DNA of 63,119 bases, the filler included, from Pelomyxa schiedti (lineage: Eukaryota > Protista > Evosea): NCBI GenBank assembly GCA_020536535.1. It is 9 parts of 9 records of this genome, joined end to end, with 100 filler letters (N's around TTAATTAATTAA, not from the genome) between each part and the next. Parts side by side here need not be neighbours in the genome. Positions count along the whole stretch, not along the records: positions 1 to 19,134 come from JAHLWZ010000569.1; 8 more parts are not named here. One strand, given 5' to 3'. A model generated the notes under the pieces. It saw only the letters and a list, made by a program, of their open reading frames with translations. It ran no database searches and was not told the origin of the DNA. Shown one piece after another: positions 1 to 56,024 of the stretch. How positions within the stretch are numbered: the first letter of the stretch is position 1; every line of letters starts with the position of its first letter. Both the position numbers and the translations under genes were made by a program.

Positions 1-1397
1 CCAGATCTCCCCAAAAATCTAGTGAACAACAAGTCACCATAAGTGCATGCAAAGAAAGGCCTTTACGCAGAGGTAAGTTCAGGACTGCCCCGTAGTAACG
101 ATGACAACTCGGAAAGGCCATATGGGCCACAAGAATTTTCTTGCAAAAGTGCCAAAATATGTTGCACCTACGAAGTGTGTCACATATGCAGGGAACTAAC
201 GCCAAACGACCTCGTTGTCCAGCAAAGACGACGGTTGAAACGCAATCAAAACGGGCTAGTTACTGGAAGACCACTTTCACTTCTAAGCCTCCCGCCTCTA
301 GACTCAGAGATCTCTCCTGAAACCCTTCTCGGACTGGAGGGAGGTGATTATGACCCATATCCACGCCCCCCCGTCATGTCCCCAATCAGTTGCTGCAGAT
401 CTCTGACGTTGCCAAATAAATTAAGTAGAAAAAGGTTGCCTCGCCGTGATTTCAAATTTTGTTCCTTTTTCCGCATACAGACATGAGGGCCAAGGTCGGT
501 GTCGTCGCCCATTTTACTCCCACTTCGCTTTTTTTTTTTTTTGTCGCCCTCGCTTTTTAATTATTGTACCGGAACTGTTCTAACGACGCTCTTTTTTTTT
601 AGTGGAGGAAGAAGCGGCAACGCCGCCTGAAGCGTAAACGCAGAAAGATGAGAGAAAGATCGAAGTAGATTTACTCTCCTACGCAAACCCTTCGCTTTGA
701 CGGTGAGTCCCACATCACCCACAAAAAAAAAAAAAAACATAAAAAACCAAAAACACAACAAAACGATACAACCACAATCTCATCCGCTGTTCAAGACGAT
801 TAACACCAACCACAGGGACAATGACTTGCACTGTCGGCGAACGAGCTCTCCACGTGAGGACCCCTCCTCGTCAACAAACCACTGTCTTGTCGTTGTGTTG
901 GGTCTATTATTCACCCACTCCACACACAACAAAAATAAAAGGGAAATAAGAAAAAGTTTACCCTCATCAAACCCCTGTTTCTTTTCTTTCTTTCCTTCGT
1001 GGTAACCGAGTTTTTCGTTTCGTGCCGCTTTCTGCGTCTCTCTTGGAAACACTTGGTGGCTGGTTTTTTTGAGCCTGACCGCCGATCCACATTCACGTAT
1101 CGGCAGGGTGTGCATGCATCAACCCAATCAGGATCTTGGGGGTATCACGCAACTGCAGGGTCTAAATGGAGGAACACTTAGGTTTAGCATTGAAGGAAAA
1201 ACAATGAAAACCGTTTGTTTGAAAAGCGGCTCGTTTATCAATTTCTGCCAGATTTCGTGAAGACGGAAAAGATCAAAAAAAATTTACACAAACAAAGACA
1301 AGGAAAAAAAAGCTACGAGGTAACAAACGACCGTAAAAGCGACACAAGCTACATTCTGCGACACTACTTATAGCATATTAGATAATACCCAAACGAT

Positions 1398-3573
1398 ATG
1401 GCCGACGCAACCCCACTTCCTGCTGGATGGAGCGAAAGAGTGGACACTACCTCTGGGAAGAAATACTACGCAAACTTGATCACAAGGGCTTCTCAATGGG
1501 ATAGGCCCACCGTTCCCGCTGCGTCGCTCGCCACCCCGCAGCAAATCGCCGCTTACGAGTTGGCTCAAAAGCAGGCCGCAGCCCCCGTTACTACAATTAC
1601 TACTAATACAGGCGCTGTGCAACCCGTCGCTACAACAACAACGCAGCCCCAGGTGGCGAACACTGCTGTACAACCTACGCAAACAACTACTCCGGTTGTA
1701 GCTGCGGCCAATCCTGCTCAGGAGCCCCTTCCCGAGGGCTGGGAGGAGAGGAAAGACCCAACCTCCGGCCGTGTGTATTTTGCAAACTTGGTTACACGTA
1801 CCTCTACCTGGGAGAGGCCCAAGTTGCCTGCGGCTGCGTTTGCCCCAGCTGCCAATACTCCTGCTGCAACTCCAACTGCACAACCAGTTGTTGTAACTGC
1901 AAACCCCGCCTCTACAGTTGCGACAAACCCCGCAACAACCCCAGTCACTCCCGCCGCTACACCAGTTGCTACGGCAACAGTCACTCCCACAGTAGCAGCT
2001 ACTCAACCTGCGACCGCTACACCAGTGGCCACCCAACCACAACCAGCTGCCCAAACACCCGCCACACCTACACCCGCCCCAGCAGCAACGGTAAGCCTCC
2101 TATTCTACCACTTCACGTTTACTAATTCGTGTAGAATCCCCTGGAACCTCCTCCTTGTGGATTATGTCATAAGACATCCCGAATACCCATGGAGTGCCCT
2201 AACTGCAAAGGAGTCGCTTGCAAGTAAAAATTGTACAAAATACCTTATACACTCTTATTTGTTTCAGAGAATGTATTGAGCCTCTAGCCTCCTCCGAATG
2301 CCCACTCTGTCATAAGCCTGTTACTGTTGCCCAATTGAAGGACAAAATGCCACCGAACTTCGAGGAGCGCTTCGATGCTACATCACAACGAGTAAGCAAT
2401 AATTTTCTCACTCACGCCTTCTAACCTTGTTTCAGATTTACTTTGTAAATGTTGTTTCCAGAACCTCTCAGTGGGATAGGCCTAAATACCGTATGTGCTA
2501 ACATCCTCTATTTTAAGTTGACTCCACGTAGCTGCGCCTGCGTCCGCTCCTGCACCCACGCCTGCTCCAGTGCCTGCTGCCACTGTAACTGTTGTACAAA
2601 CCACCTCGACACCAGCCACACAACCTACAGCAACACCTACCCCGACACAAAATCCCACTCCAGTCAATACAACTCCCGCTGCCACAGTCAGCACTGCCCC
2701 CACAACTACTCCTGCAACTTCTACCCCAACTCCAGGCGCAACAACAAGCACACCAACCCCAACTCCAAATCCTACTACACCAACTCCGAATCCATCTGCA
2801 CCAGGTGGCGGCCCTGTGGCGGGCACCAACCCTAACTCCAGTGTCAGACCTCTCAAGGTACCTTGGCACGAGCTTTAGGCAAAAACACTAACCCTTTTGT
2901 AGTTTGTGACTGTTGGTGATGGCGCTGTAGGAAAGGTTTCCTCTCCATTTTACCACCCAGTGTTCTAATTCTGTTCAGACTTGCCTGCTAATTTCTTATA
3001 CTGCCAATGCCTTCCCTGAAGAATACGTGCCAACTGTGTTCGATAACTATTCATGCAACGTCATGTTTGAGAGCAAAGGCTACAACCTTGGGCTGTGGGA
3101 CACAGCCGGACAAGAGGAATACGATCGACTCAGGCCTCTCAGCTACCCACAGACTGACTGCTTCTTCTTGTGCTATAGCATTGTTTCTCCTGCATCTCTT
3201 GACAACTGTCGCGAGAAGTGGAATCCAGAAATCACTCATCACTGCCCAGAAGCAAGAACAATTCTGGTCGGACTCAAGAAGGATCTTCGCAATGACAGCG
3301 GCCTCGTTGCCAGCTTGGCCGAGAAGAAACAACACCCAGTGACCACCGATGAAGGTGCCAAGATGGCCAAAGAACTCGGCTGCGTCAAGCACCACGGTAC
3401 CGCTTTACCTTTTCCAATTACCCTCTGCTCGTAACTAACAACTACCTACAGAGTGCAGTGCCAGGACACAGGAAGGACTTGTGGCCCTGTTCCATGAAGC
3501 CATTAAGGTCTGCCTCTCTCCAGCTACCAAGCAATCAAGTGGCAAGAAGAAAGGAGGTTGTTGCCTGTTGTAA
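1398..3573 (+). CDS. WW-WW-RING-WW-(Pro/Thr linker)-Rac/Rho GTPase fusion with CAAX box, multi-exon
   Basis: WW1 [19 protein letters not shown] and WW2 [18 protein letters not shown]. Spliced C8 RING CGLC-x9-CPNC-x4-CKEC-x8-CPLC (2135-2330). WW3 [21 protein letters not shown]. GTPase motifs [42 protein letters not shown], ending GGCCLL* at 3573. All introns read as GT-AG in compatible phase. Confidence 0.88.
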
Positions 3574-3807
3574 TAGCCCTGGACACCAGAACCCGAACAT
3601 AAAAACCACACCCATACGAAACAAAAACAAAGCTAAATAGAACTTGCATTATTTCCTGTGTATTCATACTACACAAAGGTTTTTTTTTTCTTCCCATCAA
3701 TGAACTCCCTTTGTTTTGGGGATGACCGAGTGACGCGGCGAACCTCTCTTCTTGTCAACACAAAAGATCAACTACAAACCAGAACCCATAAGTGAGTGGT
3801 GGGGGTG

Positions 3808-6079
3808 ATGCGTGTAGACCGACACGTAGCAGTTGTTGCCAATTGCGTAGTCACACTGGTGCTACTCGTAAGCTGGTGTAACTGCTCTTCGTCATCTTCA
3901 TTCTCTGAGAGTACTGCAAGTGTTGTCGGCAGCCCTAGCACAAGTAGCAGTGTTGAGAGTTACTTCAGTGATTCTCACAGTCACAGCACAAGCGGCGGTA
4001 GCGGTGGCAGTGGCAGTAGTGGTGATTCTGGATCATGGGAATCGAGGGGACAATCACACAGCCAGCCAGTTGGGATTGTGAGTTCGTCGCCAACGTGGGG
4101 GGATGGTGTGAGTGGAAGCGGAAGTGAACAATCGTCAGCATCATTATTATCATCGTCATCGTCACTATCAAAGGCACCATTGTCAGGTAGCAGCGGCTCT
4201 GACGAGGGTGCTGTGTGGAAGAAGGCTGAGGCTGAGGCCATCTGTGACCTGTACAACTCGTTGAAGCCCTGGATATGGCTGGCCGATCCTTGCGTGGAAT
4301 ATCCTGATCAAATACCGTACAACGAGACTATATTTCGGGGACTAGAGTGGGATCCCGAAGGTCACATCACTTACATGTGCTGGTTTCCAAAACTCTGCTC
4401 CTTTTTGCGCACAGCTTCTTTATTGACTCTCTACAGAGGGCTGGACACCTTTGCTTCACAACAGGGAACTATTCCCGAGACATTGGGAAATATCACTCTC
4501 CTTTCTACCATGTACACCTGTCTTTTTTTTTTTTTTTTATCATTCCTTCCTCACTCTGCACTTACAGCAAGCTTGGATTCAATCGTATGAATGGAACCAT
4601 TCCACAATCTTTAACGAAGCTGACCCTGTTATACCAATTGTTGACCAACCAGCGATAATCTTTCAATATTAATATCGAATCAAGGAGTATTTTTAGCAAT
4701 GAACTCACGGGAGAACTTCNNNNNNNNNNNNNNNNNNNNNNNNNNNNNNNNNNNNNNNNNNNNNNNNNNNNNNNNNNNNNNNNNNNNNNNNNNNNNNNNN
4801 NNNNNNNNNNNNNNNNNNNTAGTAGTAAATACAGGTTACTAGTGCCGGACAAACCCCCACCCCACCCCATGCGCACACACCTGTCCACATAAATCAATTC
4901 CATGGAGTTATCAACCCCCAACTGCACCACCACCCCCCCCCCACAACAGGTTGCTGACTGACAATTTGTTCAGTGGACCCTTGCCCAGCTTTCCTTCAAC
5001 TGACATAATGACTGTGTAAGCCACGTTTCCCTCACCGTTTTATTGTTTCTTGTTTTTGCTTTGGTTATTTATAATTTAACACCGAAAAAGAGATCTCTCA
5101 TTCAATCAGATCAATGGAACAATTCCAGCATGCTTCTTCAACTCCACATCCTTGCGGAAACTGTGCATTCATTGTTTTCCACTTAAAAACACTAATAATG
5201 GCACTTCACAAGGAATTTGCAGCATAACATGTTGATTGGTCCACTGCCGGATCTTGGTTCTCAGCCGTGTAACCTTGGGACACTGTTGTGATTCCTTCTT
5301 TTTCTGTTTTGTTGTTTTCTCATGCAAACACACCACATCAGTGATGTGTCATCAAACCTCATTTCCGGAGAGATTCCAGTTTATCTGCTTGCAAGTTCCA
5401 AACTTTCCTCCCTGTACTACTCATTCTCATTGCGCACTTTTTTCTTCTTATAATTTCATATATATTGCGGGCTTCCCCAATCAATAATGATCCCTTCCAT
5501 TTTTTATTTAGAAATATGAGCAACAATCTTCTGGAAGGAACCATTGATGGATATGAATCTTATTCTTACTACACCTACTGCTTGTATGAGCTTCTTTCCT
5601 GAATCCAATGTGTCACCTAACCCCAAACAGTGACCTGAGCAACAACTTTCTGCATGGGACTATTCCACAAACCCTCACTGAAAAGGAAATCACGGTTTGG
5701 TGTGCCCCATTTCCCCCGATTGATTTTGCTTCAATTCACCTTAACCCAACAAATCTTGAATCCTGAGACAGAAACGTAACCATAACTACAAACCAGCAAT
5801 CTTGGTAACAATTGCTTTGAATGTGGACGTGGGAACAGTTCCAACGTCACTGCTTGTGGGTGCAACAACACAAGGCCCCAAGAACAGTGTCAGAATCCAC
5901 AATCACCCTCCTCCTCACTACCTTCGTCAGAGGCATCATCACCACAAGTGCATTCCTCTTCCCAGGAACCACTGGGCAGCATAAGTACAAGCAGTGCCAG
6001 TTGTTGCTATGGGTGCAACAATCTCGTTTCAGGTTTGTTGCTCCTGACTATGATACAAGTGCTACTACTGAGTGGTTGA
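3808..6079 (+). CDS. Secreted or GPI-anchored plant-type LRR surface protein, copy 1 (interrupted by gap 4720-4819)
   Basis: N-terminal hydrophobic signal and Ser/Gly tract. Cap EAEAICDLY..W..DPC. Exons of about 72 nt encoding LxxLxxLxLxxNxxxGxIP (QGTIPETLGNITLL, NRMNGTIPQSL, NQINGTIP). Cys-rich cap, Ser stalk, hydrophobic C-terminus LVSGLLLLTMIQVLLLSG*. Confidence 0.8.
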
Positions 6080-6382
6080 CGGTACCACCAAAGTCCAAGA
6101 AAAGAATGAAGTTTTTTTTCCTTATCCCAATGAAAACATGTCCAAAGGGGGCTCCATAAAGGACGTTTTCTTCTTTGTTGGGGGAGGTAGTGAGGACCCT
6201 CGCACAAACATAAACAACCAGCAAATGAAAAATAAAAATCCTTTCCCACAATTGAGCTCCCCGATCATTGGTGAGAATAAAAGAAGTCTCGAAGCCGAGA
6301 AAGCAATTCTCTTCGCGATTGCAAATATTGGGAGCCAGACTGGTCTTCATGCTCCACCACAACTCAAAGTAACATGCACTGG

Positions 6383-6535
6383 GAGCAACAGTTGATGGTG
6401 TGAATGATGGCTAGTTGTCCACATCATGTAAAAGGGGTTGTTACCATTAACTGCCATTTAGAGACATTCAGCACCTGCAACCAATCTGATGACAATGTAA
6501 CAACTAGCCATCATTCACACCATCAACTGTTGCTC
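6383..6535. repeat. Perfect 36-bp inverted repeat with 81-nt spacer (hairpin or MITE-like)
   Basis: gagcaacagttgatggtgtgaatgatggctagttgt (6383-6418) is the exact reverse complement of 6500-6535. Confidence 0.95.
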
Positions 6536-6567
6536 TTTTGGGGGTGAAAGAAAGGCCAATGATTCAT

Positions 6568-9382
6568 TTATGTCTCGGCTTCGATAAAAAAAAACTTTTT
6601 ATTCAATCGAATGTCATGAAAAACCAAATTGTGGGAAACCGAAACTTTTGCTGGTGGATACTTGCGAATGCAGCTGTGTCTCTTCTTAGTCCGCTTATGA
6701 TTGAGACTGCCATCAAGGGTTGGCCCTGGTTGAGCTGGAGGTGGCTCACGCTCAGTAATCCATGGCGATTGCAGCAATTTCTGCTTGAACTCCTGGGCAC
6801 TTGTCTGATCAGGGTGAGTGAGCATCAAGCACACACCCACCACCCCTGGTGAAAAATTCTTTCAGCTGGTGCTGTGCAGCTGGAAAAGGGCAGACTTTTG
6901 CAACCCAGGAAAATGGAGACCACAGATACGATTCTGGTTTCCCGTCCTTTGTCTTTTGTGATTTCTTGCACCACATCCATCACTTCCTTGATTTCCGGTG
7001 TTGTATCATCGGGTTTGATGCTCACAATGGACTGGGCACAGTGGGTTGGTGTCTCCACGATTGCTTTTTCGAAGATTGGTTGAAGTTGCATGAAGGTGTC
7101 GAGGAAAGAAAAGCTGCTTGCATTTCCGTCAGCTGGGCATTTCATGGAAGGGATCGCAATTGGCTTGACACCACCACCGCCAGACTGTTGTTGGAAAGAA
7201 GAACACAATCTCTTGCCCAGAGCAATGCTGTTGGAAAGCACATAAAATTTATTCCTGGACTCTGTCACCGCATCTTGCAAAACTTTACTCTGTGTGTGAA
7301 ACATAGAAACAGAGGCAGAAGTACAAACCTTTGATGTGGCAATTTTCTCGAGATTGACTTGGCAGACCCTCAGGTTCTCCATGGCGGACTTCACAGATTG
7401 TTGAACTCCGGTCTCCATGGCGCTGTTGCACTGGCTCACTTGCACTTGCAGCTCCTTCAGTTGCAATTCGGCATTTGATTTCACCTCGAGCACCTCAGTG
7501 CATTGCTTGATGAGTGCGTCGAGTATTCCTTTCAGTGATGCCCACAGTCTCTTTTCAGCAACAGGGAGGTGTTCCTGGTGAGGAGAGCTCGGCAGTCATT
7601 GCGGACAATGCCTGAATAAATCCATGCTTGTTTATCACAGAGAATAATCCCCAATCGAAACTGTCCTGTGTTCCAGAACATCCCCATTGCTCTGGGTGCA
7701 AGATGGTTTTCGGGAAAGCGATTGCGTGAGAGGGTGGCAACACTGGCTCCAAATGGGCTTGCACTGTCATGTTGGAAAGTGCCTGACGTCACATGTGAAT
7801 TAATTTGTTGAATCAGGGATGCACAAACTGTGAGATGGTCCTTGATTTGCTTTTTCACGAGAAGTGCCATTGGGTCTGCCTCAAGCTCACGCAGTATGAC
7901 TTCGCAGTATCGCACACTTTCGTCAATGCTTGAAACAAGCCCTTGGAGTTGAGTCTGCTGTTCTCCGACTTCAGCCACGGCAGAGGGAGCACATCTTGAG
8001 ATCTTCTTCTCTCTCTTGAGAGGACAACCTGAGCGAAGAAAACTCCCTTTCGACTTGTTCTGACATCAGTTTGATGTGCTTCAGAGGGAAAGAAGTGACA
8101 ATGAGCTGCACAGACAATTGTTTTTGCAGAGAGGTACCGTACCAATTCAGAGTCATCACTGATCGACTTGAGGTGGACAATTGCTGAATCAAGCCTGCTT
8201 TTGCACAGATTCAAAGAGGTGCAAAGTTTGCTCAATTCCTTCCTGGCTGACTGAATCACATGTTTCACAGTGAAGAATTCGTGACTCTATTTGGGAAGGG
8301 TAAGTTTGCCTGTGCCTCAATACTTTTGGTGGGAGTGTGCAATGAGAGTAAGTACTCTGTGAAAATTAATTTGACATGATGAAATGAACGAGTCACAGGA
8401 TGTGCAATATAACTTCGCTTTTCGGCCGTCATGAATGCACTTGAATGATCTTTTTGCAGTCGTTTTTTTCTAATTACTGCTCAGTATTGGGGAACCAGAA
8501 TGCTTCAGAAGTACTCTTTCCGCAGGAGCGTGATCATGGAAGACTTCATGGAGAAAATCAGAGCAGCTTTTGCACAGGCTTTTATCACACTGGGGCCAAA
8601 ACACAACAGCCAGGAGCGTGCATCCCTTTTTAGCTTATTTTTATGGTCAGCAAATCCCAAAAATACCGCTTCAGTCACACCACAATTCACAGGGGTTGCA
8701 ACGGTTTCCAGGTTTTCAGAAACAGCAAGTGGATCAATTTTGAGCACACTTTCCAGCACCTTCACCAAGTAGCCACTTTGGGCATCACCCCCACCACCCA
8801 GCGACAACAGCCCTGATTCTTCTGGCGACGAATTCTCAACCTCCAACATCCCTGCCAAGCTGATCACTGGGAATCGTGAGCCACACACTGGGCACACCAC
8901 CGCCCATGTCACCGACACCGCACCCCCGCCACTTGTTGTCATTGCTGCTGCTGTTCTGGGGTTGCTGTCAGTCATGGGCACTTGTGCGTCAACTGCGGCC
9001 GTTGCACAGCCAACACCACCACGAGCGACGGGTCCGCTGTTGGCGTCGGCTGCTGTGTGTTGTTGTCCGCGGAGGCGGTTGGTGACACAGATGCAATCGG
9101 GACAAGCTTGATGCATCCCAGGTTCACTCCGTGCAAGCACGGCAACAGCCTGTGTGGTGCACCGTGCGTGTGTTTCATGTTGGTGAGGTATATTTTGACA
9201 ACACAACGCAACACACACAGACACGCGGACAGACACACAGACCTTGGGTCAGAATAAGGCATGGAGCAACATGGACATGTTGTCCTCCTGCCCCGATTGT
9301 TGTGGTTGTTGTGGTTGTTGTTGTTGCTGTTGCTGTTGCTGCTTGTCACGCTTGTTGTTCCGCCTGTTGCTCCTGCGTCCAT
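6568..9382 (-). CDS. TRIM/RBCC-like protein: RING, two B-boxes, coiled coil; 3' end approximate
   Basis: CPCCSMPYSDPR|LLPCLH..GC..CPVC RING. GCTLLAVVFWPQCDKSLCKSCSDFLH..H B-box. KCIHDGRKAKLYCTSCDSFI B-box. Long heptad-rich exons at 6825-8270. Some junctions unresolved. Confidence 0.62.
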
Positions 9383-9688
9383 TCTTCTTCAAACAAACCA
9401 CCACGATTGGAATGGCCCGGTTGGTTGGACTTTTTGATTGACTTTGGCTCAGACCAATGTGTCTCTTGCACAAATGCTCAGGTAAGTTATCACTCAAACT
9501 GTGTTGCTCAGCTTGCTACTGGTAATCTAAATCCAGCCTCGTCGAAAGTGGCTTCTGGGCTGCGGTGCCAAATTGGATTTTGATAGGAGGTGCAGGCAAG
9601 TTTTAGACTGCCATTGCTTGTGCCATAACATGCATGGTACAAAGAGACTCCCTTTTTTTTTTTTTTGACTTTTTAGCGACCAATCGAC

Positions 9689-12600
9689 TTGAAGGGCGCT
9701 GAAACCTCCACTCCGAACAGTCTCTTGGACCAAGTTTTCAGCAATTCCATCGCTAATCTTGGGAGGGTGTGTGCCGAGCTTGCGAGTCCACAGTGTACTT
9801 GTCGTCACCTGTGCCTTGAAAGCAAAATTGGAAGCGAGGGAGCAACAATCATCGCGAAAGCACTCGAATCAAACAAGTCACTCGTGTGTCTGAATCTCAG
9901 AGGCACGTGCCTTTATCCATTGTGCTCTTTCTCAATTCTCAAACGATGGTTGACTCCACTCAGACAACAAAATTGGGAGCGAGGGAGCAACAATCATCGC
10001 GAGAGCACTCCAATCGAACAAGTCACTCGTATCTCTGGAAATAAGCAGTGTGTGCCCATTGTGTTCTCTCTAATTCTCAAATGATGGGTTGCCTCTGCAA
10101 AACAAAATCACCCAGACAACGAAATTGGGAGTGAGGGAGCAACAAGCATTGCGAGAGCACTCGCGTTGAACAAGTCACTCGTGTCACTGAATATATCATG
10201 TGTATTCCCATTGTGCTCTCTCAAAAATCTCAAATGATGATTGACTCTAAAGAAATCATCCAGACAACGAAATTGGGAGTGAAGGTGCAACAAGCATCGC
10301 GAGAGCACTTGAATTGAACAAGTCACTCGTATCTCTGTATATAAGAAGTGCGTTCCCGTCGTCCCATCGAGTTCTCACAATTCTGAAATGATGATTGACC
10401 TTCCAAAACAAAATCACCCAGATAACGAAATTGGGAGTGAAGGCGCAACAAGCATCGCGAGAGCACTCGAATCGAACAAGTCACTCGTGTCTCTGGATAT
10501 GTCATGTGTGTCCCCATTGTGTTCTCTATTAATACTCAAATGATGATTGACTCACCGAAACGAAATCACTCAGCCAATGGAATTGGGAGCGAGGGAACAA
10601 CAAGCATCGTGAGAGCACTCCAATCGAACAAGTCACTGATGTCCTTGAATCTCCATCGTGCTCTCTCAAAATTCTCAAATGATGATTGACTCTGAAAAAA
10701 TACAATCACTCAGGCAACGCAATTGGGCGTGAAGGTGCGACAATCATCGCGAGAGCACTCGAATCGAACAAGTCACTCGTGTCTCTGGAAATATCATGTG
10801 TGTCCCCTTTGGCTCTCTCAATTCTCAAATGATGATTGACCCTCCAAAACGAACTCCTCAGCCAATGGAATTGGGAGTGAGGGAGCAACAATCATCGCGA
10901 AAGCACTCGAATCGAACAAGTCACTCGTGTATCTGAATCTCCATAGTATGTGCCTTCGTTCCATTGCGCTCTCTCTCAATTCTCAAATGATGGGTTGACT
11001 CTTCACCCAGACAACGAAATTGGGAGCGAAGGTGCAACAAGCATCGCGAGAGCACTCGAATCGAACAGGTCACTCATGTCCCTGGATATGTCAGGTGTGT
11101 TCCCATTGTGCTCTCTCACACAATTCTCGAATGATGGGTTGACTCTGCAAAACACAATCACTCAGACAACACCATTGGGAGTGAAGGTGCAACAAACATC
11201 ACAAGAGCACTCGAATCGAACAAGTCACTCGTGTCTCCGAATCTAGGAGGTGTGTCTCATTGTTCCATTGTACTCTCAAAGTGGTGACCCTTCATTCACA
11301 CAGAGATACTGTTCTTTTGGTTTACGTGGGTGATTCATCCCACTTTGGGTGCTTCTCTTCTGGTCTTTCTGCAACCTCAAACTTCTGCATTTTCGTGCCC
11401 TACTGTTGGTGGCACCAAATACCCTCTAAACTCGGACATTTGGCTTATCTCAGGAGGCCCAAAAATACACTCTCTGATGCCCTCTTTGAAATTCCCATTG
11501 AGATTCTCGATTCGCGGAATCGCCCTCCCAGTTACGATATCCATATTCCACTATTCTATTGAATCTTCCCCTCCATTTCTCTGACAAAAAGGGTCACACC
11601 CCACTGCAATGGGACTTGCCACAGGCAAAGAATACTTTGTGAATAACTTCAAAAACTCACCTATAAATTCTGTATGGACTCGATCGGTGATGCCAGCAAC
11701 ACGAGCCAAAGAAATTCCTGTAACTAGCACACAAACAGCCAGCCCGTCTTTGTACTCTCCAAATTTATCACTCCCGTTTGCCCAACGGTCATCAGCAGCA
11801 CGCAAACTGGACACTCCTGCACAAACACCTGAAACACTCACAAGTGCGGCAACAGCAACACCATTTCAAATTCAAACAGCCAACGCAGACCAAACGTGTT
11901 TCTGGCTTGAATCTATTGGTGTGGACGATGACTGCTTGAAAATCATTAGAGCAAACAAACTGAGAGGAAAAACACTTGCCAATTGCTCCGTTCAACAATT
12001 GTGTGACCTTGGCCTCGTTTTTGGTGATGCAAAATTCATTGTCGAGGAAGTCAAAGCACATTTATCAAGTCAAGAGCAATCGTCATGCAGTTCGCTCAAG
12101 TCGACAGGTGCAAAAATCCTCACTTCTCTATGGTTTTTCTCACATTTTTTCAGTGGGAGCAGAATCTCTTTTCAGTGCTGAGATGAATTACAAGTGCTTT
12201 GCGTTTGTTGTTGGAAATCAATCTTATGGGAAGCGTTCACTCGAAAACGCCATTCATGATTCAGAATCAATTTGTGAGGTATCTTCCATTTTCCCAACAA
12301 ATTCTGCTTTTTACATTGAATACAATTGCAGTTCTTGAAGAAAAGATGTCAATTTGAAGTGGTCCGCCACACGAACATCCCAAATCTCGAAGTATTCGAT
12401 AGCCACTTTCGAAAATTCAAAGAAACACTGATCAAGCAAAAAATGGCAGGAAACAAGGTTTGATTTGGTCTCTTTCCCTTGTAGAATTTTGGGAATTGAC
12501 AGGCATCAGGTTGCAAGCATATTTTATTTTGCAGGACATGGAAGGCAGGTGGATGGACACAACTTCCTGCTGATGACTGACGACGAGATTGCTTTCGAGG

Positions 12601-13210
12601 AGACCAGTTACGACCTCATGGAGCTCAAAGCACCTATGCTTGGCACCGTGATTGATGGAATGAAGAGATACTCTGACCTGACAATCGGCATTCTTGATGC
12701 TTGCCGCCAATCCAATGACAAGGGTGGCTCCAAGGTGACTATAAGCTCTTTCATTCTTATTCAGGACATTGGTCTTCTCAAATTGGCAGATACGTGGATC
12801 CGAACAACCAACGGAACTCCAATTGACGAAAGAAGACTTCCGTGCCGGGTGCATTTTGATTTATCCAACAAGCCCAGGTTTTTTCCCTCCTTTGGGTTTT
12901 CCCTGAATTCAACCTGTCTCGCTTCTTCGCATCTGAAACGCACAGGGAGGACAACACAGGATGTTTGCACCCTCCCAAACAGGCGGAACCATGGATTCTT
13001 CACTGGTTGCTTCCTCGAAGGTTGCTTTGCCTCCATTTCCAACCCCCGCTTTCTTACATCACACGCGTTCCAGTTGTTGAGAATGCGGAACCCGGCACAT
13101 CGTGGAACGATCTGGAGTCCGCCATTATTCAGATTGTACAGAGGGAATCTCATGACGAACAGACACCATGGATCTCAAAGAGCTCTGGGCTTCGCTTTGC
13201 TCTCTTCTAG
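9689..13210 (+). CDS. Ribonuclease-inhibitor-type LRR array, SAM domain and caspase-like (C14) peptidase; start uncertain, single-transcript linkage inferred
   Basis: Ten 28-aa repeats NxIGSEGATxIARALESNKSLxxLxL. SAM-like QTCFWLESIGVDDDCLKIIRANKLRGKTL..QLCDLGLVFGDAKFI. C14 motifs AFVVGNQSY..LENAIHD, FYFAGHG (His at 12537), ILDACR (Cys at 12702), IYPTSPG, GFFT, EQTPW; stop at 13210. Confidence 0.75.
9820..11300 (+). repeat. Tandem exon+intron unit of about 150 bp, ten copies (84-nt phase-1 LRR exons)
   Basis: Examples: exon 9964-10047 and exon 11166-11249. The introns also share sequence (ccattgtgctctctc..ttctcaaatgatg..ttgac..cag). Confidence 0.92.
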
Positions 13211-13440
13211 TCGATCCCAAGAGAAAGCCATTCTTAGTTCCTGCACAACTTGTGAACGATGCCAAAAGAAAAAATTCAGTGCCTATCTGTGCCGAAAATG
13301 AGCAGCGTCGTTCTCATTGTTCCGCCATCCGAGTTTGTTTCACTGTTCTCGAAAGAGACAAAAAACAACAATACGAAAAGCCACAACAGGTACGCTGGGC
13401 CCCAATACAAACCCATAAGTGAGAGTGCCCGATCGTGCTG

Positions 13441-16102
13441 ATGGGTGCTGTCCGCCAGGGAACATGGGTTGTTGTGACCAACTGCGCAATCACACTGATG
13501 ATACTCATCACATGGTGTAACTGCTCGTCGTCATCACCGTCTTCGTCGGCGTCCTACTCCGCGTCCTTGTCATCTTCCGAGAGTACTAGCATTAGTACTA
13601 GTACTAGCACCAGCTACAGTGAAAGTGTCAGTGACATTCACAGTATTGACAGTGACACCACTACCTCTGGAGCGAGTGTGTCTCTCAGTATCAGTCACAG
13701 CACGAGCGTCAGTGGAAGTGGAAGTGGAAGAGGGAGTGGAAGCTCAGAGTCATCGTCAAAGGAACCACCATTGTCAGAGGGCATCAGCTCCGACGAGGGT
13801 GCTGTGTGGAAGAAGGCTGAGGCTGAGGCCATCTGTGACCTGTACAACTCATTGATGCCAACGGTGTGGCTGGTTGACCCTTGCGTGGAGTATCCTGATC
13901 AGATACCGGAAAACGACACTCTATTTTGGGGACTAATCTGGGACTCCGAAGGTCACATCGCTTCCATGTACTTGTTTGCTTTCAAAAAAAAACTCAGTTT
14001 TCAGCACAGCTTCTTTATTTAACTCTTTCTACTCACAGAAGCCTGGACGGTGATGCTTCACAACAGGGAACTATTCCCGAGACACTGGGAAATCTCACCC
14101 TCCTTGAAACCCTGTGTGCACATATTTTTCCCCTCTCAATCCATTCCTTCCTCACTCTGCACTTACAGCAAGCTTGGATTCAATCGTATGAATGGAACTA
14201 TTCCACAATCTTTAACGAAGCTGACCCTGTTATACCAATTGTTGACCAACCAGCGATAATCTTTCAATATTAATATCGAATCAAGGAGTATTTTTAGCAA
14301 TGAACTCACGGGAGAACTTCCCTGCCTTCCGCCATCACCTTTTCTGATGTCTGTAACAATCGTCTTTTGACCTTACTTACAACATAAAGTGAGGTTGATG
14401 ACAATTATCTCAGTGGCACCTTGCCTCCTTGTTTGTCGCAGATGACTTCACTGAGGCTTTTGTGAGTATTTATTTAAAACCAAACAACTCTTATATCTGA
14501 CTTACATTCAGCCGAGTGGACCATAACCAGTTCGTTGGGACGGTACCATCACTCAGTGCATCACTCCAGGTTTTTCTCTGTTCTGCAATCATGCGAAATT
14601 CACCATTTTCAGTATCTGGACTTATCTTTTAACGAGCTCCATGGGTCTCTGGACCTTTTCCTCAACATGAGTTCACTTGTCACTCTGTATGAATACCTCC
14701 CTCATGAGTCAGCTTCAAATAACTGCAAAAACCATTTTCTCCTCCTGGAAAATGTTTGTCAATTTGAAGATACCTTCAGGAAACATTGTTCAGTGGAAGC
14801 ATTCCCACATCCATTTCCTCATTGACAAGTCTGCAAAACATGTTTGATCCAAAAAAAAAAAAAAACCCAAAGTCACTTACGGGTTTGACAAGGGATCTCA
14901 CAGGGAGTCAGTTCACAGGATCTATTCCCGCTGAATTCTTTTCCCTGCCTCTCCGCAAAGGGTTGTTATACCCCTCATATCTTATCTTTTTTATCTGTTC
15001 CAAACAAACAAGGAAAATTCACCCCACCCCCCGCAACAGGTTGCTGACTGACAATTTGTTCAGTGGACCCTTGCCCAGCTTTCCTTCAACTGACATAATG
15101 ACTGTGTAAGCCATGTTTCCCTCACCGTTTTATTGTTTCTTGTTTTTGCTTTGGTTATTTATAATTTAACACCAAAAAAAAAAAGAGATATATCATTCAA
15201 TCAAATCAATGGAACAATTCCAGCATGCTTCTTCAACTCCACATCCTTGCGGAAACTGTGCATTCATTGTTTTCCACTTAAAAACACTAATAATGGCACT
15301 TCACAAGGAATTTGCAGCATAACATGTTGATTGGTCCACTGCCGGATCTTGGTTCTCAGCCGTGTAACCTTGGGACACTGTTGTGATTCCTTCTTTTTCT
15401 GTTTTGTTGTTTTCTCATGCAAACACACCACATCAGTGATGTGTCATCAAACCTCATTTCCGGAGAGATTCCAGTTTATCTGCTTGCAAGTTCCAAACTT
15501 TCCTCCCTGTACTACTCATTCTCATTGGCGCATTTCTTTCTTGTGATAATTTCATATATTACCGGACTTACCATCCATTTTTTATTTAGAAATATGAGCA
15601 ACAATCTTCTGGAAGGAACCATTGATGAATATGAATCTTATCCTTACTACACCTACTGCTTGTGAGCTTCTTTTTCTAAAGCCAACCTAACCCCAAACAG
15701 TGACCTTAACAACAACTTTCTTCATGGAACTGTTCCGCCAACCCTAAACGGGGAGAAATACGTGTTTTGGTGTGTTATGTAACCACCCAACATCCTTTCA
15801 CTCAAATACCCAGCAACCTCGAAAACAATTGCTTTGAATGCGGACGCGGGAACAGTTCCAATGTTACAGAGTGTGGGTGCAACAACACACGGCCCCAAGA
15901 ACAGTGCCTTAATTCCGAATCAGCCTCGTCATCATCAGAGGAAGTAATCATGTCACCATCACAAGCTCATTCCTCTTCCGCCCAGGAATCACAGGGTAGC
16001 ATCAGCACAAGCAAGGCCAGTTGTTGCTGTGGTGGGTGCAACAATCTCGTACATGTTCTGTTTCTGATGGCTGTAACACGAATGCTACTATTTCAGCCTT
16101 GA
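13441..16102 (+). CDS. Secreted or GPI-anchored plant-type LRR surface protein, copy 2
   Basis: Same architecture as 3808-6079, with shared SDEGAVWKKAEAEAICDLYNSL, single-LRR exons and hydrophobic C-terminus LVHVLFLMAVTRMLLFQP*. Confidence 0.82.
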
Positions 16103-17788
16103 ATCAGGTAGAAAAAAACTTTCATCAGTTGCACTTTCACCACCCCGAAGTTCGTTGTTCTTCTGTCTGGGAGCAATTTGGCCCATTCACCACCAACAGG
16201 ACACAGAGCACACCTTGGGTGTTAACTCCCTCAGTTACGATACTGCCAACAAGAGACTTTTTTCTCAGTCTTTTACTCTCAACATTCCAAAAAAAACTGG
16301 AAACGCGGAACCAACGGCCAACGGACGCTCTTTTGAGTGACACACAATGGCACTGACAGTGGGAACTGCTGCGTCTTCATCGAAAACACCCCCCTCGACG
16401 GTGGATGCTGCTGCAGCACCAAATGGTTGAGCACGACAACAACCACCGCGAATACGAAATGTGGAGCACGAACGACAACAGCGTAAAGGCGAGGCCACTC
16501 AAGTACTTGGCAAAAAAAGCAAGGCAACAAAGCTGGTGGTGGCCGCAATAAAATGGGTAAGAAGGAAAAGCTTGGGGCGGGCGAGGGCGCCGCGTCGTGG
16601 GTGTCGGTGTCGGTGGTTGTGGTGATATACTACTATATGGCCGAGCCACTGGCTGAGGCGCACCTCAGGGACCCCGCAAAAGGGGAAGAGAGTCAGAGTT
16701 CCAGTCGCTGCAGACGGGGAGGGACATGGCGCAAAGCAAGACGGAGAGTCCCCAGCCAAATACCCTCCATCGGGAACACACCCTCTCTTCTGGGCGACTT
16801 ACTTCAAGAGAGAACAAGTTGCAATGCAGCTTTCTTCACTTGGGGTTGATCCCAACCATCGAATGTTACAGCTGTAGCTAGACACAACATAAACCACCCA
16901 ATTAACCCCGTGGTGGTCGCAGTGATGAACAATCAAAAGGAATTAATTGGTTGATCCAATGGCGAAACACCGTGGTGGTGTTCTTCCTGCCAAAGGACAA
17001 CGTTCATGGTGGTACTTTAAGGATGAGGGGAAGTACCCTCACATCGACTGTATGTTTTGTTGAATTTGAGTTCTTTTGGTTCATTTCCTTCAGGATACTT
17101 GGAAGAATACCACATGGTTGATGTGTCTCCCTCATGTTGGGCCAAGAGCAGACACACTTCTTCGTTCATTCCATGCCTGAACTTAGGACAACAATAGAAG
17201 TATGACGGTACTCACTCGACTATTGTTCAGTTTTTAAAAGCATCGATGACGACGCAGTTCAATCTCCTGAAATTCAGCAAGTGCTGGAATTTCTTGACAT
17301 CCAATCTCATGGAAGGATTCAACATACTTCTCGTTTTTGGTTTGTTTGTTGCATTTGCCTCTCATTGTACACACAGATCGTGATACCACTGGGGATTCCT
17401 TCTCGAACACGATTTCCACTGTGTTCTGTGGATTCGTTTTGTGAACAACTTGAGCACTTCGGCATCCTAAGTACATCCCGGATACCTTGGTATTACATAC
17501 AAATCTGACCATTATCCAACAAGGTATTCAAATCTCACCTTGCTTTCAAAAGGGCAACTTGCCTTACTGACCTCAAATTTATTGAAGATGGAGTGAATGC
17601 CCGATGCACCACCAACAGGGTGGATCAACTGGGGGCGTTGCACATCAATTGCAACCAAACACAGACACTCACTCAGTCCAGTATCATGAAATGGGGTTTT
17701 GATACATCCTCCAGACATGTCCAGTGGGGGTCTGGAATGGAAAAAATGTTTTTTTTGAATTGCACATTTACGTTAAATACATAGTGGG

Positions 17789-19134
17789 CTATCCAAGCAA
17801 AGAATCACTTCCCATGATGAACAGAGCACCACCGTCACCACCTTTTCCTTCATTGCAGTCATACACATCACAACGTGCATCATTTCCACCACCACCACCA
17901 CCGAATCGGCCACCTGGTGTTCCCCTCTTCCTGTTCTCGCCTGGTGCCCCTGGTTGGCCTCCAACAGGCTTTCCTTGAAGTGTCCCAAGCCAACAGCCAC
18001 CTCCACTCCCTGCTGAGTCATAGAAGCCGTTTGTTCCACCGTCTCCTCCCCTGCCTCCATTTTGACCTGGTGTTCCTGCTTCATTTTTTTTTTTTTTATT
18101 TTGTGATTTAGTGGGTTTTGTATTGTTGTATGTTGTTGTTTTGTTTTTTTACATTGAACTGCCTCTTGTGAACTTCCACCACCAGATCCAGCACCCACAC
18201 CACCACCATCACAGCACACACTGTCACCTCGGCATGCGTTCTTTCCAGCACCACCATTGCCCCCTGTTCCTGCTGCACCACCTCCCCCACCACCTGAGGC
18301 GTGTGCTCCGCCACCTGTCCCACCTGTGAATGAGCCTGTGTTCACTGCCTTGTGTGTCCCTGGCAGAGTCACTGTACCCACCCCGCCATCTCCACCACGT
18401 TCGCTGCTGGTGGCATTGGCCCCTGTTGCATATGCTTTACCACCATCACCACCACCGCCACGTGCCAGTGCTTCACCTGATGATGTTGTCACAGTGGTGT
18501 CACCACCTTTCTTGCCCTGTTGACTCAACCTCGACCCGCCAGCACCACCCCTCCCAACAACAACAATGAACGTTTCACCCTCAGCCACTCCGAGTCCCAG
18601 AACAAATGCAGTTCCACCGCCACCACCTCCTGCTCCTCCACCATCAGGATCATGGCAGCCAGCACCACCACCAGCACCAACAACAGCAAATGACATCACA
18701 GTCACACCACATGGCACAACCACCATGTGTTCTCCTGGTCTGTCAAGGCAAACTGACAATGGGTGGAAAAGGCGAGCAGATGCAGGGTCACTGAATGGTC
18801 CAACACCACCTGGTGATGATGCTGCAACACGAAGAGGTGCCACAGAGCAACCTGGGGAGAGGCTGAAAACACACTGAAGGGCAAGCCCATGATACACCTC
18901 ACGTCGTTGTTGTTGTGCAGTTCCTTCAAGTTCAACAGCAACAGTGTATGATACAATCTTGGATCCATTTGGTGGTGGTGCTTTCCACTGCACTGAAACG
19001 GCGTCAACAGCTGTTTGTGAAGCTGTTGGAACATCAGGTTTACGTGGAAGGCCTGTGAATGTGGGTGGTTACAACACAGTATTTTTTCTCAACAAGAACT
19101 CAACTCACCCATATTTTCCTGCAATCTCGTGTTT
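17789..19134 (-). CDS. Fibronectin type III plus glycine-rich domain protein; 5' end truncated at contig end
   Basis: VQWKAPPPNGSKIVSYTV..VYHG..LRVAASSPGGVGPFS is FN3-like. PGEHMVVVPCGVTVMSFAVVGAGGGAG..GETFIVVVGRGGAGG follows. After an intron at about 18080-18170 the frame ends GKGGDGGALFIMGSDSLLG*. Confidence 0.75.
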
Positions 19135-27923: not shown

Positions 27924-28606
27924 GTGACAATAGTACAGACTGGGAGGCTGATAGTGAAGTCAGTTTTCGCAAACAAAAAAGAAACAAACGTAAGAACAAA
28001 TTTGAAACGCGAGGAAGGAAGCCTAAGAACAAAGTTGGGAGGCCGCCATTAAGTCAAGCAGAAAAACGTAACAGACTAAAGAAAAAGGAACCACTGAGCA
28101 GAGGAGGAAAAGTCTCTACTGGAAAAAAGGTTGGGAGGAGCCATACGGACTGTGCTCAAGTGGATGCTTCCAAGAAACACAAAGGAAGGCCTGCAAAATC
28201 CTCAGAGCCTCAAACTGTGAAACAGAATTCAGTCCTCTTCGTGGAGCCTCTTCAGGATGGTCTTCTGGATAATATCCACTCTCCCTCCCATACAACAGTG
28301 TTACCGTCTTCGACTCCTTCAGAGCTTCCCCAGAAGCGAGGCAATACTACTATCAATGAAAACGATAGCCTTACAAAGCGCAGAAAGAAGCAACCATCTG
28401 CCCAGACTGTATGAGGATTATCCATCACCCTCCCTCGTAGTAACAAAAAACCACACAAAAAAAAACAGCTTGCCGATTATGTCACTGATGAAGAAAACTA
28501 TCAGAAGTGTTCTCGCATTCTCAATGCTATTTACAAGCACAGAGACGCGCCTGATTTTCGTCACCCAGTAGATGCCGTGGCACTTGACATTCCAGATTAC
28601 CATGAC
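27924..28606 (+). repeat. Second-copy fragment of the bromodomain gene (matches 52734-53423)
   Basis: Near-identical sequence with scattered substitutions and a slightly shorter intron. Confidence 0.9.
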
Positions 28607-50952: not shown

Positions 50953-53900
50953 ATGCAAGGCGATACCGACGACTCGTCGCCGCCGCGTACGTACGCGTGT
51001 ACTTCGTCGTCTTCGCCGCGTCGTAGATCGCGAGGAGGAGGAGGAGAAGGAGGCCGCGTCGCCGCCGCCCGCGTCGTCGAAAAACATCAAAATCAACCGC
51101 AGCCGCCGACGCCGCCGTCCGACGTAGACGAGAGATTCCCGCCCGAGGAGCCCATTTTCGAAAGCAGGCCGACGCAGCCGCCGCCAAAGCGCCCCCGAAT
51201 TGACCAAGATATCGGCCCCGCACCTGCACCTGCACCTGCAAATGCAACTGCAACTGCAACTTCGTCTCTCGATAAGGCCCGTAATTCGAGCTCTTGCGGT
51301 GGGAATGAGTGCAGCGCTGCATCGTGTTGTGACGCCAACAATCAGCAGATTCGGTGTGTGGTGACTGCCATATCTGGCAGTTCTCGCAATTCGGAGAATC
51401 CTGTGGAGCAGGGCACGGGGTGTTGCAGCTCGACTGATGCGGCTTCTAATTTTTTCAAGTATCCTTTGATCCTCTTCAACTCTCAACTTTACTTATTGAA
51501 CAGACAATGTCAAATGAGAATCAACCAACTTATATGTTATTTGCAGGCCAATCGATTCTGCAACTGAGCTTGGCAAAGAGCAAAAACAGAATACAGAGCT
51601 TGCTCGTGATCAAGTTGGCACTCTGGATAGAAAACAACTGACGGGAAACCAGCAGCCAGAGCTCCAACATGGAGCTAGCACTGACCCAGTGGGTCAACCG
51701 TCCAATTCAGCTGTGGAACCTCCTAAGTCCACTGAAAACGCTTGCAGCATGCATACAACCGCAGAGGAAAGAACTGTAATCGCTACGTCGTCCTCAACTA
51801 GCTCCACCAACTCACTTGCGAACATTTCGTCATCCCCTTCCGTAACCACAGAGTGTGGTACGCAGCTTCCTCTTAGTTCCACTGATAGTCAATATTCTTT
51901 CACACCCTCAATTTTGTCACCTGAACTTCTTGTCAAGACCAGAGCCTTGTGCAGTGAACCCACAATCACCCGTTCATCCTCTGAGCCAATTACATCCCCA
52001 CAGAGACCTTTCGAACCCAGTGAAATAGTAGCCCCGCTTGCCCCTAGTACACAACCTAACTCTGCCGCAACCAACCATACAACTAACTCTTCTATCTCTA
52101 AAGGAGCCACTCAAACATCTCCCTTTTCAAAGAAGCTTTTTGCTCAAGCTGTTGTGGTTGGCAGCCCCATTCGTGTAAAGGAGGACTGCCGCGCCAAGTC
52201 ATCTACCACCGTCATATCTTTCAAGAAACCCACACCACAGGAATGTCGTTCATTCCCCAATATCGTACCTTCTGTCAACAGTAATATGGGCTCCCCAGTG
52301 TCTGTGGTTCCACCTCCCGCACTTCAGGCACCTTACATGGAAAGTGCATCTCAAGTATCACCAATAAATGACTTGCCTCCAAGTAATTATTCCGCACAGC
52401 AAGTGAAGATACTCAGTCAAACACCTAATCAGGGAACTTCAAAGAAAACATTTTCTGCTCCAGTTCCACCCCCCACATCAACCCCTCAGAAGATTTTACA
52501 AGGGAGCTTTGGTGATGACATTTCTCCTACATACATTTCTCCAGTCCCTCCACCAGTGTTATTACCCTTTGGGGAAGGGAGTATTTGCACTGAAGATAGA
52601 TTGGAACCCCGCAGACAGAATGCAGATCACAAAAAAAAGAGGAATGAAACCAGTGCCTACAGTAATCATAAAAGGAAAGGTCAAAAAGACGAAGAGTACG
52701 AGTATAGAAATGAGTCTGAATCGGAAGAAGAATGTGACAATAGTACAGACTGGGAGGCTGATAGTGAAGTCAGTTTTCGCAAACAAAAAAGAAACAAACG
52801 TAAGAACAAATTTGAAACGCGAGGAAGGAAGCCTAAGAACAAAGTTGGGAGGCCACCATTAAGTCAAGCAGAAAAACGTAACAGACTTAAGAAAAAGGAA
52901 CCACTGGGCAGAGGAGGAAAAGTCTCTACTGGAAGAAAGGTTGGGAGGAGCCGTACGGACTGTTCTCAAGTGGATGCTTCCAAGAAACACAAAGGAAAGC
53001 CTGGAAAATCCTCAGAGCCTCAAAATGTGAAACAGAATTCAGTCCTCTTCGTGGAGCCTCTTCAGGATGGTCTTCTGGATAATATCCACTCTCCCTCCCA
53101 TACAACAGTGTCACCGTCTTCGACTCCTTCAGAGCTTCCCCAGAAGCGAGGCAATACTACTATCAATGAAAACGATAACCTTGCAAAGCGCAGAAAGAAG
53201 CAACCGTCTGCCCAGACTGTATGAGGATTATCCATCACCTTCCCTCATAGTAACAAAAAACTACACAAAAAAAAGAAAAAAACAGCTTGCTGATTATGTC
53301 AATGATGAAGAAAACTATCAGAAGTGTTCTCGCATTCTCAATGCTATTTACAAGCACAGAGACGCGCCTGATTTTCGTCACCCAGTAGATGCCGTGGCAC
53401 TTGACATTCCAGATTACCATGACATTATCAAGATGCCAATGGATTTGAGCACAGTTCAAAATAAGCTAGCAAGCAGGGACAGCTACAGAAATTGCCTGGA
53501 ATTTGCATCCGACATGAGGCTTATTTTTGCCAATGCTATGCTGTACAATCCAGTAGGCCATCGGGTTCACCTCGCAGCCGAGAAGTTATTAAAAGTTCTA
53601 GAAGGAAAACTGAAGCGAGTTTTCCCCACTTCTGAATCGGCTAATGTTCCTGACCTGGAAGACTCGAACACTGCCACCCTTCCCACAACTGATGGTGTCC
53701 CTTCCACGTCCACCCCTGCTGTGCAGATACTGCCTTGCACTGATCCACCGGGCCGAGTTGCTGAAGTAACTTCGCATACATCTGCATCACCTAAACATTC
53801 GGCCGACATATCTGCATCACTTAGGCCATCTACAAAGAGCAGGCATCTAGGCCGCTTAATACAGGCTTCGTCGGGAAGGCAAACACCACGATCCTCCAAG

Positions 53901-55274: not shown

Positions 55275-56024
55275 TCACACCCTCAATTTTGTCACCTGAA
55301 CTTCTTGTCAAGACCAGAGCCTTGTGCAGTGAACCCACAATCACCCGTTCATCCTCTGAGCCAATTACATCCCCACAGAGACCTTTCGAACCCAGCGAAA
55401 TAGTAGCCCCGCTTGCCCCTAGTACACAACCAAACTCTGCCGCAACCAACCATACAACTAACTCTTCTATCTCTCCAGGAGCCACTCAAACATCTCCCTT
55501 TTCAAAGAAGCTTTTTGCTCAAGCTGTTGTGGTTGGCAGCCCCATTCGTGTAAAGGAGGACTGTCGTGCCAAGTCATCTACCACCGTCATATCTTTCAAG
55601 AAACCCACACCACAGGAATGCCGTTCATTCCCCAATATCGTACCTTCTGTAAACAGTAATATGGGCTCTCCAGTGTCTGTGGTTCCACCTCCCGCACTTC
55701 AAGCACCTTACATGGAAAGTGCATCTCAAGTATCACCAATAAATGACTTGCCTCCAAGTAATTATTCCGCACAGCAAGTGAAGATACTCAGTCAAACACC
55801 TAATCAGGGAACTTCAAAGAAAGCATTTACTGCTCCAGTTCAACCCCCCACATCAAACCCTCAGAAGATTTTACAAGGGAGCTCTGGTGATGACATTTCT
55901 CCCACATACATTTCTCCAGTCCCTCCACCAGTGTTATTACCCTTTGGGGAAGGGAGTATTTGCACTGAAGATAGATTGGAACCCCGCAGACAGAATGCAG
56001 ATCACAAAAAAAAGAGGAATGAAA
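55275..56024 (+). repeat. Second-copy fragment of the bromodomain gene (matches 51900-52649)
   Basis: Near-identical with scattered substitutions; reading frame intact. Confidence 0.9.

Follow-up and report, generated by a model that had tools for sequence, protein, structure and literature searches.

Leucine-rich repeats encoded one per exon at the front of an LRR-SAM-caspase gene of Pelomyxa schiedti

The locus and its gene

The stretch of Pelomyxa schiedti DNA that we analysed (63,119 nt, hereafter the window) carries on its plus strand, at 9819-11249, an array of ten 28-residue leucine-rich repeat (LRR) units of the ribonuclease-inhibitor type (RI-type), to which Tandem Repeats Finder gives a score of 1264. 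The array is the front of a gene that continues with a cap, a linker, a SAM-like domain and a caspase-fold protease. No further copy of the LRR unit is present on either strand within the window, and a minus-strand reading of the array, being open in patches only, was rejected. The features of the gene are the following.

9677..9902, plus strand: likely first coding exon (N-terminal segment, N-cap helix and LRR unit 1), its start at the acceptor 9676 being predicted
9903..11165, plus strand: nine homologous phase-1 introns of 56-74 nt, eight GT-AG and one GC-AG
9964..10047, plus strand: LRR unit 2 exon, 84 nt; junction residue D, strand EIS
10116..10199, plus strand: LRR unit 3 exon, 84 nt; junction residue N, strand NIS
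10264..10347, plus strand: LRR unit 4 exon, 84 nt; junction residue Y, strand YIR
10422..10505, plus strand: LRR unit 5 exon, 84 nt; junction residue N, strand DMS
10574..10657, plus strand: LRR unit 6 exon, 84 nt; junction residue S, strand NLH
10714..10797, plus strand: LRR unit 7 exon, 84 nt; junction residue R, strand EIS
10862..10945, plus strand: LRR unit 8 exon, 84 nt; junction residue S, strand NLH
11011..11094, plus strand: LRR unit 9 exon, 84 nt; junction residue N, strand DMS
11166..11249, plus strand: LRR unit 10 exon, 84 nt, the terminal repeat; junction residue D, strand NLG
11304..11530, plus strand: cap exon, with a W-F-T-W motif common to Pelomyxa LRR proteins
11594..12107, plus strand: Pro/Ser/Thr-rich linker and SAM-like domain (the latter at about 11890-12055; SAM_1, E=0.002)
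12153..13210, plus strand: caspase-family domain, Peptidase_C14, in six exons (Pfam E=2e-22)

Units 2-10, each flanked by AG and GT, are all exactly 84 nt long. Unit 1 (9819-9902) forms the 3′ end of a longer exon; no AG precedes it, and a GC donor follows it (9903, intron 1); GC-AG introns make up 1.59% of introns in the P. schiedti draft, according to the accessible text of the genome paper (PMC8887013). A preliminary description of this DNA had reported nine 84-nt phase-1 exons with mutually homologous introns, and split codons giving D, N, Y, N, S, R, S, N and D, both of which we confirm. The nine strand triplets that it listed are correct for units 1-9, but the tenth (NLG) was missed, so that its nine listed units are not the nine 84-nt exons. 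It mentioned neither the SAM-caspase tail nor the two lesions of this copy that are described below.

The repeat introns are on average 81% identical to each other (69-90%, ungapped columns) and the exons likewise 81% (71-92%). Since the introns are as similar as the exons, each exon and its intron were copied as one block. The sequence TTGAC lies 14-28 nt upstream of the acceptor in eight of the nine introns. None of the nine has a length that is a multiple of 3 (as related sequences they do not amount to nine independent draws), so retention of any one would shift the frame. With every unit 84 nt long and in phase 1, any number or order of units stays in frame.

From its sequence and from modelling, the protease domain is predicted to have a caspase fold with a His-Cys dyad. 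At this locus the dyad is intact (His codon 12537, Cys codon 12702) and the stop codon lies at 13208-13210. The best match of a model of the related protein P0005 (pLDDT 66) is MALT1 (Foldseek E 4e-8, TM 0.62), which fills the top Foldseek ranks with TM 0.5-0.6 and was also ranked first in a separate search (E 0.26-0.9). In pairwise comparison MALT1 reaches Z 12.6 (rmsd 3.4, 173 aligned), caspases Z 12.1-12.2 and metacaspases 9.8-10.1; the 12.6 of MALT1 and the 12.2 of caspases, within 1 Z unit of each other, are a tie. The full-length model of P0008 has low quality beyond the LRRs (mean pLDDT 44) and is reliable in the repeats only, each of which has one short strand and one helix; it matches RI, NOD2, NLRP, RanGAP and ciliary LRR proteins. 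The SAM_1 match of the locus gene (E=0.002) is below Pfam's curated cut-off.

A 77-residue query from downstream of the array retrieved 13 caspase proteins among 16 candidates, and all 13 are from Pelomyxa schiedti, in line with the amoebal origin that had been proposed for the array. H-G is present in all 13 and D-A-C-R in 12 of them. One, P0003, aligns exactly to 11076-13207 in 11 segments, lies on a contig of 19,134 bases, the length of the first contig of the window (1-19134), and is thus the public model of the locus; it starts at an internal Met of unit 9 (11076) and leaves out the first eight repeats. Three named paralogues among the 13, P0004, P0006 and P0008, combine LRR_6 repeats, the cap, the linker, a SAM-like stretch and Peptidase_C14, whereas P0023 covers the LRR-to-SAM part and ends at the start of the protease. 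The set closest to the locus consists of P0003, P0004, P0005, P0006, P0007, P0008 and P0023, and six of these form one clade with 100/100 support in a tree of 12 protease domains (P0015 and P0023 excluded). An M-G-x-x-x-S/T start is found in four of the 13, including all three full LRR paralogues, which all have M-G-x-x-x-S, a sequence that we take to be an N-myristoylation motif. The exon structure of the paralogues is inferred from protein sequences.

Pfam finds LRR, SAM and Peptidase_C14 matches, and no Roc, COR, NACHT or NB-ARC domain in P0003, P0004, P0006 or P0008, so the gene belongs neither to the ROCO nor to the NLR genes; the public name 'NLRC3' reflects LRR similarity alone. The Atlas places the protein in a generic caspase cluster (0.90, 159 features) and in generic LRR clusters, and neither Pfam nor the Atlas has a name for the cap region. 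In searches that each scored about 8,000 candidates, at least 11 Pelomyxa proteins carried RI-type LRRs. Beyond Pelomyxa, a 23-nt degenerate repeat motif had no matches in metagenome contigs, and the caspase alignment found eight loci there at 23-36% identity, none of them Pelomyxa-like; a plasmid search, with 107 of its 109 records from Ralstonia, was not used.

Parts of the gene recur in other arrangements. The cap region (W-F-T/S-W ... L-F-E-I-P-I-E-I) follows LRRs in nine Pelomyxa proteins, including P0016-P0021 and P0146, and the tails behind it vary (caspase, kinase or other); an LRR and cap front precedes kinase domains in four proteins. The SAM and caspase-like module (P0009-P0015) is also found behind Sel1, ankyrin plus PARP_reg and Ras modules and behind unnamed regions, and P0014 has two caspase-like domains.

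The copy at this locus is probably damaged, given that AAG (9692-9694) occupies the position of the start Met of P0008 (K-G-A-E-T-S instead of M-G-A-E-T-S) and that the cap exon is one base short. The interval 9380-9830 contains five ATGs, but none that is in frame unless splicing intervenes. In the cap exon, a span of 152 nt corresponds to 153 nt in P0008, with the base missing between 11315 and 11467; the frame shifts near 11461-11466, and P0008-like sequence resumes in another frame. The public model spans this frameshift by a 134-nt intron (11320-11453), at the cost of most of the cap. Two observations speak against damage: an upstream ATG could be reached by 33 mechanical splice routes, and the ten repeats are stop-free with intact splice ends. 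On balance we have fair confidence that the damage is real and recent; however, the accessible text of the genome paper describes the draft as built from amplified single-cell DNA (PMC8887013), and if the window comes from that draft, as we assume, the lesions may be assembly errors.

The public model uses an AG inside the cap exon (11452-11453), and P0023 skips from its last LRR to the residue that matches this same AG. A cap-less form may exist, or the locus copy and P0023 may both be damaged in the cap. P0023 and P0005 look like two halves of one gene, and their contig is as long as the one that carries P0008.

Several other features of the window were recorded. On its contig, the LRR-caspase gene lies between two paralogous genes (3783-6067 and 13410-16090) that share 72-84% of their DNA sequence; they have a signal-like start, a Ser-rich stretch and plant-type LRR-like motifs, their first exons have no Pfam match, and they may be a second receptor family. 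Fragments of a bromodomain gene at 27924-28606, 51900-53423 and 55275-56024 occur in two to three copies on different contigs with 96-98% identity, and are either recent duplicates or separately assembled alleles. The contig joins (19135-19234 and seven others up to 59339) consist of 44 N, a 12-base all-frame stop linker and 44 N, and scaffold gaps appear as runs of 100 N at 4720, 28607 and 55175.

Variation and turnover of the repeats

In a set of 40 repeats taken from the five closest proteins, variability peaks at the residue encoded by the split codon at the junction (3.4 bits, 12 residues in 39), with positions 2, 27 and 25 next. The preliminary description saw the splice junction as the source of this diversity. 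The junction does rank first in eight of ten Pelomyxa proteins, but it also does so in seven of 11 LRR proteins from long contigs that are presumed to be single-frame calls (14 of 25 such proteins, with fewer than five repeats, having been dropped). In four intron-free arrays of one genome bin, G001, mean variability is highest at the junction (0.83; ranks 2, 5, 1 and 10); these arrays were read as open frames at nine loci, of which four with too few repeats and one duplicate were dropped. In one of the four, an 18-repeat array with 84-nt spacing, the junction and positions 2, 25 and 27 vary most. As the residue is equally variable in arrays that lack introns, its variability comes from the LRR fold, and the intron lies at the most variable residue of that fold without causing the variability.

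G001 (loci L011, L014, L015 and L016) is a 1.8-Mb bin labelled Rhizobiaceae that contains many long intron-free RI-type LRR genes, and such gene sets are typical of intracellular bacteria. The 18-repeat gene with 84-nt spacing is about 50% identical to a Pelomyxa LRR protein.

The idea that variation is concentrated on the strand side of the repeat is supported. Pairwise pN is 0.45 at positions 23, 25, 27 and 2 and 0.09 elsewhere, with an overall pS of 0.28, and 40 of the 42 four-residue strand codes found across paralogues are distinct. The helix, described earlier as nearly invariant, is conserved, but its positions 10, 12 and 16 show three residues each. Codon models gave an omega of 0.79 for exposed strand sites (preselected), 0.94 when position 2 was included and 0.37 for the rest; purifying selection thus acts on the helix and scaffold side, and the strand side can vary freely. 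The expected excess of non-synonymous change was not borne out: M2a did not improve on M1a (LRT 0.83, p=0.66), in an alignment of ten exons by 27 codons that excludes the junction codon and has low power. This agrees, with little power, with one of the three outcomes that the preliminary description had named as refuting its reading. An omega of 50 for three codons was discarded, because the codons had been picked after the fact.

The paralogues differ in repeat number and order. The inner repeats of the locus and of P0008 are not colinear, while unit 10 is closest to the last repeat of P0008 (5 differences, against 7 or more for the others). The earlier suggestion of a receptor-like gene family is supported, with non-colinear repeats between its paralogues. 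Repeats are closer within than between genes (8.40 versus 9.29 differences, p=0.0002, 47 repeats). The intron family also appears at another locus: the model of P0006 extends through an intron with similarity to introns 1, 3 and 5 of the array (scores 63, 48 and 45; maximum of shuffles 34). For P0023 this test gave no significant result.

Within the array, the distances of the two exon halves are unrelated (r=0.09). Compared with simulation on a single tree, excess conflict was found for upstream intron plus exon (p=0.005) and for exons (p=0.03), and two more tests gave p=0.10 and 0.11. A triplet recombination scan passed Bonferroni correction in none of 840 triplets. A near-site mosaic test on exons (p=0.0002) was set aside, since its signal came mostly from within-codon pairs and p became 0.33-0.61 once pairs less than 4 nt apart were removed. 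Taken together, the data suggest exchange between units, with no sign that it is confined to exon borders. On a larger scale, other genes of this genome combine LRR plus cap, and SAM plus caspase, with different partners.

Possible roles of the array and its rearrangement

The reading that we favour, and to which we give somewhat better than even weight, is that the array is the repeat domain of an LRR-SAM-caspase family, a likely sensor-protease whose binding face is probably rebuilt by germline unequal crossing-over and conversion, and that the copy at this locus is a recently damaged member. Unequal crossing-over and conversion among exon-plus-intron units of about 150 nt would change repeat number and order over generations, the 84-nt phase-1 design would keep the products in frame, and copies would be born and lost. 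The transcript would be spliced constitutively, by intron definition. Intact members could be anchored by N-myristoylation, as their M-G-x-x-x-S start suggests, and the concave face may, judging from the domain content, bind a protein or microbial ligand. Clustering via SAM would then let the protease dimerise and become active, as domain content and the behaviour of MALT1 and SARM1 would predict. The product is likely a cytoplasmic sensor-protease, which could serve in defence or in the control of prey and endosymbionts. A fast-changing sensor-protease family is likely, an immune role is suggested by analogy, and the variety of the family was probably built by DNA duplication over generations, not by splicing.

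It is less probable, though well worth weighing, that the repeats turn over without any role in defence, with a signalling or housekeeping LRR protein undergoing ordinary recombination while its exposed residues drift neutrally. An omega near and not above 1 at exposed sites fits such drift, and the failure to detect positive selection counts against an arms race. The mosaic signal within the array is weak, the family is small, related LRR and cap modules sit on kinases, and ciliary and RanGAP proteins are made of this type of LRR as well. However, the three to four strand-side positions evolve several-fold faster than the other positions, nearly all strand codes are unique across paralogues, and the gene ends in a protease whose dyad is intact and which is found behind Sel1, ankyrin and Ras modules as well.

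We consider it unlikely that the array provides a Dscam-like repertoire, in which single cells would skip or combine the 84-nt cassettes, producing as many as 2^9 isoforms that preserve exon order and have new residues at the junctions, on the binding face. All 36 possible skips among LRR exons are in frame and stop-free, the exon ends use all four bases, and skips could yield T, A, C, H, G or P, residues absent from the nine present junctions. LRR exon skipping has been reported for human NLRP3 (PMC6642158) and Ectocarpus ROCO genes (PMC11378527), in the portions of those papers available to us. Yet skipping is rare when introns are short, as they are here, and the junction varies in arrays without introns. 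The safety of skips follows simply from duplication of one unit of 3n nucleotides. It had been claimed that a junction can never form a stop. None of the 16 combinations of exon end and start does, but the cap exon starts with AG and units 3, 5 and 7 end in T, so that splicing any of these three to the cap exon gives TAG, and any skip stays open only among the LRR exons. Stop avoidance is also not convincing as a design feature, since 13 of the 16 dinucleotides are stop-safe anyway. A splicing-based repertoire is unproven.

A still more ambitious version appears slightly less probable again. It sees a one-chain inflammasome-like family in which single cells skip or recombine cassettes, giving an anticipatory repertoire to a multinucleate amoeba with several prokaryotic endosymbionts. 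Its single chain would combine a membrane-anchored LRR sensor, SAM and a caspase-like protease, and the split codon would write new residues at the most variable position of the binding face. Finally, programmed somatic rearrangement of cassettes among a cell's many nuclei, in an adaptive-like manner, is very improbable: homologous introns are possible recombination substrates and the accessible text of one paper proposes the idea for Ectocarpus (PMC3341825), but neither the window nor the short introns hold spare, inverted or non-coding cassettes, the units differ by 8-29% with no identical copies, and somatic recombinants are unreported even in brown algae in the accessible text of another (PMC11378527).

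If the family works as the germline sensor-protease reading proposes, it is a concrete candidate for the intracellular pattern receptors still missing in amoebae, and it would be easy to assay because sensor and protease are on one chain. The available text of one survey counts over 150 Dictyostelium LRR proteins, none with a shown receptor role (PMC5758549).

Comparison with known systems

The literature within our scope, which leaves aside supplements and most subscription papers, contained no LRR-SAM-caspase family in an amoeba. Searches for Pelomyxa together with caspase or with leucine-rich repeat found only unrelated papers; in its accessible parts, the main text of the P. schiedti genome paper mentions neither (PMC8887013), and such a family does not appear in the available text of papers on paracaspase architecture and amoebal LRR receptors (PMC4053784, PMC5758549).

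The individual parts do have relatives. MALT1 shares with the protease domain the caspase fold and the His-Cys dyad, but identity to MALT1 and clan CD caspases is only 15-18%, and the Pelomyxa protein has LRRs and SAM in place of the death and Ig domains that characterise the MALT1 layout. MALT1-type paracaspases cleave specifically at Arg and are activated by dimerisation.

For the array, the sections of the cited papers accessible to us describe four comparable systems. The parallel with brown algal ROCO genes that had been drawn at the outset is sound: these genes also have one LRR per equal-length, same-phase exon (PMC3341825, PMC11378527), their repeat number varies between paralogues, and they too are candidate immune receptors. 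However, their exons are 72 nt, encode 24 residues and are in phase 2, compared with the 84-nt, 28-residue RI-type, phase-1 exons and very short introns of Pelomyxa. They have a ROC-COR instead of a SAM-caspase tail, and inverted or non-coding LRR exons, which are not seen in the Pelomyxa window. Their exposed LRR sites are under diversifying selection, whereas the Pelomyxa array gives the non-significant result above, from ten exons and with low power. Tetrahymena LRR genes with 90-bp exons are likewise built of repeated exon-intron units, and in them too a 'junction' amino acid is encoded jointly by two exons (PMC6564038); unequal crossing-over is the mechanism proposed, and there are fusions to kinases and other domains. 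Their exons are 90 nt and phase 2, in thousands of genes with a link to retrotransposons, while in Pelomyxa they are 84 nt and phase 1, in about a dozen genes found.

Human NOD/NLRC genes likewise encode 28 residues of RI-type LRR per exon (PMC6642158), preserve the frame and have their exon border fixed in the strand region. In contrast, the Pelomyxa gene lacks NACHT and CARD and carries its caspase-like domain on the same chain, and its units are young (81% DNA identity, introns included). The Protochlamydia LGR proteins are bacterial and intron-free, yet their arrays of 28-residue RI-like LRRs grow by duplications in multiples of 84 nt (PMC2216083), so an LRR unit can turn over without splicing. 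One-LRR-per-exon arrays thus gain another lineage, with its own exon length and phase. The cassette architecture itself is already known, and the SAM-caspase tail adds to the interest of the gene.
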